Origin: Candidatus Omnitrophota bacterium
Lineage (GTDB): Bacteria > Omnitrophota > Gorgyraeia > Tantalellales > Tantalellaceae
Direction: 5' to 3'
Assembly: GCA_043816025.1 (NCBI GenBank)
Contig: JBDRIH010000065.1
Location: 1-53,856, forward strand
Length of the DNA stretch: 53,856 nucleotides
Below, piece by piece: positions 37,779 to 38,979 of the stretch. Under the pieces are notes generated by a model. It saw nothing but the letters and a program-made list of their open reading frames with translations, did no database searches and was not told where the DNA came from. Every line of letters begins with the position of its first letter. The first letter of the stretch is position 1. A program made the position numbers and the translations under genes.

Positions 37779-37884
37779 CCTCCTTTAAATGAGTACATGA
37801 TTTACGAACACACTAGTGCGAGTAAATCATATGTACGAATTTACCCCGACACCAATTATTCTAATTAAATAATTAGTGTCGGGG
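37779..37884 (-). promoter_or_regulatory. E1: two-hairpin leader motif ending in the gcvH Shine-Dalgarno
   Basis: The minus strand reads ccccgacac...gtgtcgggg taaattc GTACatATGATTTAC tcgcactagtgtgttc GTAAATCATGTAC tcatttaaaggagg. The same architecture is found at 45057-45144. Confidence 0.6.
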
Positions 37885-38979
37885 CCAAGTCCGTTCATAA
37901 ACCGGTATGCTTTTCACAAACGCCTTGAGAGCGGCCTTTCCGTCGGTAAGCGTAACCTCCCGCCCCCCAGAGGCAGCTCCTTTATTAATATAACACACCC
38001 CTATACCTTTTTTCAAACATGGAGAAAAGGCGCCGCTTGTCACCTCTCCGGCATCCATTTCGTCGACTAAAACTGTAAAATGTTTCCTGGCGCTTCTTCG
38101 GCCTTCGCACATGAACCCGGTCAAGATCCTCTCGATGCCTTGCTCCTTCTGTCTTAAAAGCGCCTCCCTGCCGATAAAGTCTTTCTCCAAAAAAACAAAT
38201 TTGGTCAGGTTTGCTTCAAAAGGTGTATGGTCTTCATCTATGTCATTGCCGTAAAGAGAATATCCCATCTCAAGACGCAGGGTGTCACGGGCACCCAGAC
38301 CGACCGGTTTTACCCCCTCGAACCCCGAAAGCGTATCCCAGATTTCTACCGCATATTCTTTAGAAAAAAACAGCTCGTAGCCTAACTCCCCGGTATAACC
38401 GGTTCGGCTGAGCAGGACATTAACACCTTTTATCTCGATATTGGTGAAATAGTAACGTTTAATCCCTTCAATAATAGGCCGGCCGATCAGCTGGCCCAAC
38501 ACTTCGCCGGAGGAAGGTCCCTGCAGGTCCAATTTAGCTGTGTTGTCGGATTCATCGCTAAAGGCCGTCCCGTAAGCGATATGCGTTTCGATCCATCTCT
38601 TATCTTTTTCAACGGTCCCGGCATTCACCACAAGCATAAACTCTTCCGGCGCCGTCTTGAATACTATGAGATCGTCTATTATCCCGCCGTTATCATTAAG
38701 CAGAAATCCATACCGGCACCTTCCCACAGGCATGTCGTCAACGCGGCAAGTCACCAATCTATTCAGTTCTTTTTGGACAGAAGGTCCCTTGAGGGAAAAT
38801 TCGCCCATGTGGCAGATATCGAATAGCCCCGCCTTTTCCCGGGTGTGGATATGTTCCTCGATTATACCAGTATACTGAACAGGCATGTTCCATCCCGAAA
38901 AGGGAACCATCTTTGCCCCCGCTTCAAGATGCCGGCTGTAAATAGGAGTATTCTTCAAATTATGATCCATTTCAGACAT
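37873..38979 (-). CDS. gcvT: Aminomethyltransferase (glycine cleavage T protein)
   Basis: Contains GLFDICHMGEF and GYTGELGYELF. The start is moved to the ATG at 38979 because a consensus promoter -10 box sits at 39011-39016. Confidence 0.9.
   Translation of the reverse strand: MSEMDHNLKNTPIYSRHLEAGAKMVPFSGWNMPVQYTGIIEEHIHTREKAGLFDICHMGEFSLKGPSVQKELNRLVTCRVDDMPVGRCRYGFLLNDNGGIIDDLIVFKTAPEEFMLVVNAGTVEKDKRWIETHIAYGTAFSDESDNTAKLDLQGPSSGEVLGQLIGRPIIEGIKRYYFTNIEIKGVNVLLSRTGYTGELGYELFFSKEYAVEIWDTLSGFEGVKPVGLGARDTLRLEMGYSLYGNDIDEDHTPFEANLTKFVFLEKDFIGREALLRQKEQGIERILTGFMCEGRRSARKHFTVLVDEMDAGEVTSGAFSPCLKKGIGVCYINKGAASGGREVTLTDGKAALKAFVKSIPVYERTWPRH

Follow-up and report, generated by a model that had tools for sequence, protein, structure and literature searches.

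We analyzed two structured leaders in a 53,856-nt stretch of DNA (the window) from the Candidatus Omnitrophota metagenome-assembled genome (MAG) GCA_043816025.1, contig JBDRIH010000065.1, one of which stands in front of gcvH and the other in front of a gene coding for a DUF7847 membrane protein. Both are almost certainly copies of a dispersed repeat and not a dedicated regulator, so that the two leaders are alike through common descent from this repeat and not through co-regulation. Our fuller reading, to which we give a probability of roughly 0.55, is that the repeat spreads at the DNA level and is carried passively in mRNA, as a mosaic repeat like the repetitive extragenic palindromic sequences and bacterial interspersed mosaic elements (REP/BIME). 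Each copy is composed of two hairpins, HP1 and the more conserved HP2, followed by a Shine-Dalgarno (SD) sequence and an ATG. The original prediction, made from the letters of the window alone, held that both stretches read in this order on the minus strand and that they share literal strings, and both points were borne out. Specifically, the pattern TAAATTCG-N35-60-TCATTTAAAGGAGG matches exactly two sites in the window, which are the two copies, and none in 100 dinucleotide shuffles; the pattern common to both copies is not due to chance. With covariance model R1 the HP2 of copy 1 scores 67.9 bits (E = 1.5e-15; E = 6.5e-11 with nhmmer) and that of copy 2 scores 79.6 bits (E = 4.8e-19). Pfam places GCV_H downstream of copy 1, the DUF7847 membrane protein downstream of copy 2 and recR upstream of copy 2. 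Below, genomes, contigs and loci are cited where needed by our G, C and L handles, with G000 being the genome that holds the window.

The G000 assembly (1.275 Mb, 103 contigs, 48% G+C, 87.5% complete) contains 23 HP2 matches by nhmmer and model R1, which are spread over 17 contigs and all lie outside open reading frames (ORFs) or at ORF edges. Note that three pairs of contig ends (C15/C39, C64/C88 and C40/C47) match each other in their genes and in the repeat copy that they hold, apart from a few single-nucleotide differences. Thus, the MAG holds some redundant strain-variant sequence and the raw copy counts are slightly inflated, leaving about 20 independent copies. Many copies are also found within 100 nt of a contig end, as is expected of a repeat that breaks short-read assemblies. 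Beyond this genome, R1 matches occur in 32 of 41 related genera drawn from 17 families, with 1–82 copies each, and in an evenly drawn sample of the phylum they occur in 197 of 301 genomes and 142 of 207 genera. The search of the genome and its relatives that the original prediction proposed therefore returned many further copies, and its suggestion of another small mobile hairpin agrees with the census at all three levels. The best relatives of the GcvT encoded upstream of copy 1 are themselves Candidatus Omnitrophota MAGs, at no more than 69% identity. Viral contigs gave no match to the core pattern, and carriage by a phage or plasmid was rejected on that result. A gathering-threshold Rfam scan of the window found no relevant family, with scans of both copies at E<=10 giving only chance matches of the microRNA type, and a full-text literature search on intergenic hairpin repeats of Omnitrophota/Omnitrophica found no description of the element.

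The design of HP2 was drawn from an alignment of 20 copies from G000 (A1) and an alignment of 67 hits from relatives (A2). HP2 measures 55–58 nt and consists, from the base upward, of an outer A/T stem of 5 bp, a symmetric 2x2 internal loop (TC/TC in 54–56 of 56 sense rows), a 4-bp inner stem made of one G:C pair and three variable pairs, a bulge of 1–2 nt in the 5' arm, an upper stem of 9–10 bp and a loop of 12–16 nt, which in locus L017 accommodates an extra hairpin. The upper stem reads AACTTAYG/CRTAAGTT, or GATTTAC/GTAAATC as in the gcvH and gap copies. The outer stem TAAAT/ATTTA covaries to TTAAT/ATTAA, TCAAT/ATTGA, TAAGT/ACTTA and TGAGT/ACTCA in other copies, and this covariation supports the earlier proposal that TAAAT and ATTTA close the helix beside the SD. 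The proposed 4-bp palindromic base holds for the two window copies (GTAC and GATC) but not elsewhere, where the inner stem can be GCAC/GTGC, GCTC/GAGC, GACC/GGTC or GGCC/GGCC. The proposed hairpin-2 loop is likewise present, but in copy 1, with the layout TAAAT-TC-GTAC-at-ATGATTTAC...GTAAATCAT-GTAC-TC-ATTTA, it folds into a 4-bp mini-hairpin of its own, next to which a second TC/TC loop is found. A related observation comes from locus L195 (G024), 5' of gap, where only the HP2 foot is kept (TTAAT-TC-GAC...GTC-TC-ATTAA, then GGAGG) and the upper stem is unrelated (AAATGGTTTCAGAA...TTCTGAAACCAAA). The foot may thus be the truly constrained part of HP2, in which case model R1 undercounts the family.

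HP2 is nearly always fused, with zero spacer, to the 3' foot of HP1. The interior of HP1 is unrelated between copies and variable in length, and it usually starts with CCC and ends with GGG(A/G/T). Several HP1 types have an HP2-like foot consisting of a 5-bp stem, a TC/TC loop and then G...C; the HP1 foot of copy 2 shares this design of stem, TC/TC loop and stem. HP1 type A (GATCCCTCG...CTCGGGAT) also occurs without HP2, including in a gcvT-gcvH spacer (L072), and tandem stand-alone type A units (GATCCCTCGACTCGGCC...CTCGGGATGACATTGTCGG) are seen at C79:6408-6500 of G000. Tandem HP2-HP2 arrays, together with these stand-alone HP1 hairpins, indicate that the modules can also separate. In G039, HP1 and about 12 nt upstream of it are shared by copies at unrelated loci, which indicates that there the HP1+HP2 unit was duplicated whole.

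Pairing within HP2 is well maintained. Among the G000 copies 95.8% of cells are paired and both sides have changed in 10 of 19 pairs, a result matched by none of 500 shuffles; among relatives 97.9% are paired with both sides changed in 16 of 19 pairs, in an alignment that was fitted to the model and so leans to structure. Both strands fold far better than shuffles (z from -2.7 to -8.1), with the 121-nt RNA of copy 1 reaching -48.9 kcal/mol (z = -8.1). On the complementary strand the internal loops become GA/GA (tandem G·A), and only on this strand is the outer stem closed in the minimum-energy RNA fold. Minimum-energy folds also contain a 3–5-bp CUC:GAG pairing between the 3' foot of HP2 and the SD. 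Sequestration of the SD by the invariant CUC was considered as the reason for conservation and was rejected, as CTCA is equally invariant in copies that have no SD.

Table 1. Parts of the two repeat copies in the window and the translation and promoter-like signals beside them.
Feature	Positions	Strand	Basis or sequence
Copy 1 HP1, CCCCGACAC...GTGTCGGGG	37884-37844	minus	sequence read
Copy 1 HP2 (conserved repeat core)	37843-37786	minus	starts TAAATTCG, ends CTCATTTA
gcvH SD, AAGGAGG	37785-37779	minus	sequence read, ORF, Pfam
gcvH ATG	37773-37771	minus	sequence read, ORF, Pfam
Copy 2 HP1, TCCC-TC-ACCC-tgtta-GGGT-TC-GGGA	45145-45121	minus	sequence read, fold
Copy 2 HP2, TAAAT-TC-GATC-tt-ATAACTTATG...CATAAGTTAT-GATC-TC-ATTTA	45120-45064	minus	covariance model R1
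DUF7847 membrane-protein gene SD, AAGGAGG	45063-45057	minus	sequence read, ORF, Pfam
DUF7847 membrane-protein gene ATG	45051-45049	minus	sequence read, ORF, Pfam
Promoter-like TTGACA-16-TATACT, overlapping the recR stop	45195-45168	minus	consensus scan, 11/12 positions

Two further features of the window touch on how the copies sit among genes. Copy 1 takes part in coding, since the gcvT ORF ends at 37873 and its last residues and TAA stop (37875-37873) are coded by the 5' arm and loop of HP1. Across positions 37873-37890 (minus strand) the GcvT C-terminus reads ...VYERTWPRH* as compared to ...Y(E/K/Q)(R/H)* in relatives. The triplet just 5' of HP1 is TGG in G000 as opposed to a TAG stop in G015, so that the G000 frame reads on to the TAA in the HP1 loop, and GcvT is thereby extended by five residues, TWPRH, that derive from HP1. 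As for copy 2, the promoter with a -35 box over the recR stop that had been proposed earlier is found as a putative site by its consensus match, and it would put copy 2 in a 5' untranslated region (UTR) of about 110 nt. A scan for an intrinsic terminator (a GC-rich hairpin plus a T run) found none at either window copy, where HP1 is followed by TAAATTC.

We also analyzed how copies are placed and oriented. Between co-directional gene pairs of G000 there are 8 sense and 7 antisense copies relative to transcription. The sense copies end 12–18 nt 5' of an ATG, and the genes that follow them are gcvH, the DUF7847 gene, gap, an OmpA-family gene, a DeoC-family aldolase gene, a class II aldolase-like gene and rplT. 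In relatives, the genes after sense copies are, as we take it from their N-terminal residues, dnaK, tuf, argG, argH, aroC and plsX. The antisense copies start at the stop codon of the upstream gene, and in four cases the TAA of that gene is the TTA of ...CATTTA on the opposite strand; genes that we take by eye to be PriA-like and FabG-like are examples in G000. Over G000 and its relatives, 29 of 77 copies (38%) have an SD and start codon directly after the element, and of the 25 copies in which GGAG/GAGG is clear, 23 have the GGAG starting 0–2 nt past the element. In relatives, three copies end 0–3 nt before the first base of a tRNA and others precede another unit.

The units occupy the short gap that separates a stop codon or promoter from the following SD. 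Copies occur singly, in tandem or as triple-hairpin cassettes in which an inverted HP2 (HP2rc) is followed by HP1 and HP2, and there are truncated and nested copies as well. The closed genomes G176, G171 and G182 have 16 close pairs, every one of them divergent (HP2rc-HP1-HP2) and not one convergent. Cassettes of 148–226 nt (G171:C1 and G176:C1; loci L218-L229) occupy the entire intergenic spacer, with the left HP2 holding the TAA stop of the upstream gene and the right HP2 abutting the SD of the next gene; the two HP2 arms of a cassette are of different subtypes.

Two kinds of tRNA locus also contain the repeat. At L010 1483-1880 (G012), and at L035 in a genome of another family (G040), an antisense copy (HP2rc+HP1rc, both inverted) is located inside an intron-bearing tRNA gene. 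The intron is of group I (RF00028, 71 bits), and the interrupted gene reads from its sequence as tRNA-Asn(GUU) split after U35. Its 5' exon ends in ...GGCUGU with AAAUGAGG directly after the splice point, the last intron base before UAACCAGU is G, and GCAGCU, the internal guide, is 3' of the element. As the guide follows the element, the element fills the P1 loop of the intron, and this loop is another site that tolerates a hairpin insert. At L009 1400-1640 (G021, minus strand) an antisense unit lies within the 5' part of tRNA-Arg(CCU), flanked by a 13–17-nt direct duplication of the tRNA 5' end, (ATTT)GCGTCCCCGTAGC, with a complete tRNA retained. A sense copy adjoins the displaced tRNA fragment there with 0 nt between them.

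Orthologous sites were then compared across relatives. The gcvT-gcvH synteny is present in all 30 loci fetched from relatives, yet the element is found in the spacer of only four loci (G000, G015, G039 with two copies, and G034 with two copies of which one is antisense). Several element-free spacers measure just 5–25 nt, such as TAGGAGGAAAAG-ATG in G022, and many others are filled by different repeats, including an 'H rod', HP1 type A alone and tandem heptamers; the spacer at L062 (G014), for instance, holds six tandem AAGTATC heptamers. The gap leader gives a similar picture. Here the element is present in G000 and G022, with the foot-only variant in G024, and is absent from the other 27 of 30 loci, even from that of the closest relative (85% protein identity). 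A promoter-like block, TTGAAC-N17-TATATAATACTCACTT, is strongly conserved across the family in front of gap (loci L189-L205; C39:7780-7830 in G000), and the repeat unit of G000 is positioned 3' of this block and 5' of the SD. For both gcvH and gap, the GGAGG-5 nt-ATG geometry is identical with and without the element. This unchanged spacing indicates that the SD is part of the gene and that the element only abuts it. Together with the lack of a following SD in more than half of the copies, this goes against the idea that the hairpin carries an SD.

These comparisons also bear on the idea of a gene-specific cis-regulator, riboswitch-like or attenuator-like, that is common to gcvH and the membrane-protein gene. 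The one point in favor of such a regulator is the original observation of two similar structured leaders ending at an SD. However, the module stands beside dozens of unrelated genes in both orientations, about 20 further copies being present in G000, and it is missing from most gap leaders and from 26 of the 30 orthologous gcvT-gcvH spacers. There is also no Rfam match and no intrinsic-terminator feature at the window copies. A dedicated cis-regulatory leader, as had been proposed, is refuted for practical purposes by the census.

We instead propose a dispersed, modular Omnitrophota hairpin repeat comparable in kind to the enterobacterial REP/BIME mosaics. The unit would spread, or would once have spread, as a folded hairpin at the DNA level by means of an enzyme, and would persist only where a stop codon, an SD or a tRNA 5' end stays intact. 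Such persistence in compact genomes would leave the repeat abutting just these signals. Once placed it would be co-transcribed and would probably act at most as a passive barrier in mRNA, namely as a 5'/3' stabilizer or an SD insulator; an mRNA-stabilizing side effect is possible. The mismatches within HP2 are informative in this regard. If a helix were under selection as RNA in a single orientation, G·U would be expected to be tolerated and A·C to be removed. The non-Watson-Crick cells number 6 G·T versus 9 A·C in G000 and 9 G·T versus 13 A·C in relatives, the latter among 1139 Watson-Crick cells, and such rare and equal mismatches would fit random decay of copies or constraint on both strands. 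Copies show no preferred orientation, fill orthologous sites only sporadically and include truncated and nested forms, and taken together these findings argue against the view that the family exists chiefly because of a strand-specific function of the RNA. Quasi-palindromes can also become perfect through template switching in replication, and covariation is thus weaker evidence of selection here than it usually is.

Several observations weigh against DNA-level spread with passive carriage. No mobilizing enzyme was found. The Y1/RAYT (REP-associated tyrosine transposase) domain PF01797 occurs in 36 of the 41 genomes, among them 7 of the 9 that lack the element, and so does not track with it. 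By-eye inspection of the junctions of about 70 copies gave no consistent target-site duplication. An exact-protein look-up with GcvH, aimed at empty/filled sites in near-identical genomes, returned no match. The gcvT-gcvH copies of G015 and G000 have the same HP2 subtype in the same place directly 3' of the stop, with differing HP1 interiors, and their HP2 differs by a compensatory pair (GCAC/GTGC versus GTAC/GTAC) that would be compatible with selection on the fold in place. The phylum-wide conservation of the HP2 sequence, including the unpaired TC/TC, is far broader than that of usual REP families and argues for a conserved sequence-specific partner or function. Finally, the distances of 0–2 nt to GGAG (23/25), seen even in promoter-proximal leaders with room elsewhere, and of 0–3 nt to tRNA +1 amount to a placement rule that is tighter than tolerated space easily explains.

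Other indications of a mobilizing system were looked for as well. The only Y1 gene of G000 (187 aa, PF01797; C27:4749-5346, L057 849-1447) is flanked on both sides by TAACCTGGTTAG palindromes and looks like a classical REP-RAYT pair that belongs to a different repeat family. In high-copy genomes a copy lies within 1.5 kb of a Y1 locus in 2 of 25 cases, as compared to about 1 expected by chance from a rough estimate of copy density. A RAYT/IS200 link was rejected given this proximity at about the chance level, the lack of phyletic tracking and the other palindrome at the Y1 gene of G000 itself. The consensus flanks, T(A/T/C)AAT-TC-G and C-TC-ATT(T/A/G)A, contain no GTAG-type 5' tetranucleotide, and left-flank motifs such as TTAAAG or TAAGG resemble the right junction without covarying with it. 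Terminal repeats of the kind found in miniature inverted-repeat transposable elements (MITEs) were also assessed: cassettes do end in inverted HP2 copies, these being of different subtypes, and no autonomous partner was found. The strand bias expected from HUH single-stranded DNA transposition was examined in G176, where dnaA lies at base 316 and the terminus was taken to be opposite; 26 of 38 copies are anti-leading after removal of symmetric pairs, a bias that is weak, non-significant once tandems are collapsed and confounded by gene orientation. As for integrons, the consensus holds no attC core sites (RYYYAAC/GTTRRRY) and copies are scattered over 17 contigs; no search for an intI gene was made.

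Some of the points that trouble DNA-level spread would be accounted for if HP1/HP2 were a general-purpose, phylum-wide mRNA element kept by selection in each place. In one form of this explanation, a conserved RNA-binding protein or endoribonuclease would read the element, and cleavage at the base of the hairpin would place the start of cistrons and tRNAs just past it ('punctuation'); in a second form, the element would be a 5'/3' stabilizer and SD insulator. The sequence conservation that extends to unpaired positions across the phylum, the 0–2 nt to GGAG in 23 of 25 clear cases, the 0–3 nt to tRNA 5' ends, the frequent position before or after highly expressed housekeeping genes, the compensatory change between G000 and G015, and the folding of both strands beyond shuffles (z -2.7 to -8.1) all speak in its favor. 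However, sense and antisense copies are about equally frequent (8 versus 7) although their RNAs differ, with a UC/UC loop in one and a GA/GA loop in the other, and G·U makes up less than 1% of cells and is no more frequent than A·C, which sets these stems apart from selected RNA helices of such divergence. Orthologous leaders that are only sporadically occupied, copy numbers between 0 and 82 in the genera of a single family, and the existence of truncated and nested copies count against it further. Overall we consider selection on the RNA in each place to be unlikely, though it deserves to be kept in view.

A less probable alternative is that HP2 is a homing mini-element, that is, mobile DNA with a true target specificity and a new structure-directed or signal-directed mode of insertion. 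Its targets would be the 3' foot of a GC-footed hairpin already in place and/or the 5' edge of an SD or stop codon. This would suit the nearly constant zero-spaced attachment of HP2 to the 3' foot of very different hairpins, the occurrence of HP1 type A alone, the different subtypes of the two arms in a cassette, the constant 0–2 nt to GGAG, and the 16 of 16 close pairs that diverge around a central hairpin, as is expected if the 3' foot on each strand is the target. Against this, HP1 and HP2 are both missing from the gap leaders of empty relatives, which indicates that they arrived together and not by insertion of HP2 at a resident hairpin, and the whole HP1+HP2 unit was copied in G039. In addition, no enzyme was found and neither a target duplication nor a recent insertion was seen. 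We regard targeted homing as rather improbable.

The strand-asymmetric TC/TC loop, the bulge and the tip sequence are conserved phylum-wide, indicating that something sequence-specific constrains HP2. We tentatively suggest, as an idea with the odds against it, that HP2 may be the recognition hairpin of an undescribed Omnitrophota-specific system. This system could be a non-RAYT DNA insertion machinery that places a 57-nt hairpin at the 3' feet of hairpins, flush with translation signals, or it could be a phylum-wide RNA punctuation or stabilization system in which a protein reads the invariant T-TC-G / C-TC-A foot. Either form would explain the conservation of unpaired bases and the 0–2-nt rule, which plain insertion tolerance explains poorly.

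These results have several implications. Look-alike structured leaders in Omnitrophota should not be annotated as riboswitches or taken as signs of shared regulons. The repeat also breaks assemblies, with many copies ending up at contig ends, and it can alter the ends of genes, as seen with the five HP1-derived residues of GcvT and with the genes that take their TAA stop from the repeat. It is unusual for a bacterial repeat that the unpaired bases of a 57-nt hairpin are conserved throughout an entire uncultivated phylum. Finding the partner of HP2 would uncover a new mode of small-DNA movement or else a new level at which mRNA is organized in very compact genomes.

Several known systems resemble the element in part. 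Possible functional parallels are the ompA 5' UTR stabilizer hairpins and the RNase III intercistronic sites of phage T7, which are stable hairpins located just 5' of an SD or between cistrons, the T7 sites having an internal loop near the helix base. Unlike the Omnitrophota element, which is known from sequence alone, these are single evolved sites and not a repeat family. Integron attC sites are recognized as a folded single strand with an outer stem, an unpaired spacer, an inner stem with extrahelical bases and a variable tip. The likeness to attC is one of architecture only and includes conservation of structure over sequence, a tip that tolerates insertions (L017) and a position between a stop codon and the next start. 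In contrast to attC, the element has no RYYYAAC/GTTRRRY cores and is dispersed beside housekeeping genes in both orientations instead of being arrayed at an integrase.

Among repeat families, the Neisseria REP2 (CREN) sequences are small dispersed repeats directly upstream of many unrelated genes, beside the ribosome-binding site, and Correia elements form hairpins that are co-transcribed and open to processing. Both are like the present element in being small dispersed repeats or co-transcribed hairpins. Their sequences are unrelated to it, and in the Omnitrophota element the SD lies outside the repeat, copies are found in both orientations, and no TA duplication or long terminal inverted repeats are seen. 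The BOX, RUP and SPRITE repeats of Streptococcus pneumoniae are modular, hairpin-forming and intergenic, with tens to more than 100 copies and no transposase of their own. They share with the Omnitrophota element a modular build from sub-elements, hairpin formation and intergenic location, but differ in modules and sequence, in their species-level spread and in having no fixed abutment to an SD or stop codon.

The closest parallel is with REP/BIME and with REPIN-RAYT (REP doublets with their transposase). REP/BIME sequences are conserved at the species or genus level and reside mainly in 3' regions, whereas the Omnitrophota element is phylum-wide and many of its copies are 5' of genes, flush with the SD. 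The element also lacks the GTAG-type 5' tag and the Y1/RAYT association of REP and REPIN-RAYT, and unlike REP/BIME it fuses two different hairpins without a spacer and conserves a strand-asymmetric TC/TC loop. Both groups nevertheless consist of short imperfect palindromes that are extragenic, number tens per genome and are co-transcribed with the flanking genes, and in both, mosaic clusters in alternating orientation and inverted doublets occur and the hairpin is kept while the sequence of the stem varies. Different palindromic units in a fixed relative orientation, as in clusters of BIME-type repeats, are found here as HP1+HP2 units, HP2-HP2 tandems and HP2rc-HP1-HP2 cassettes.

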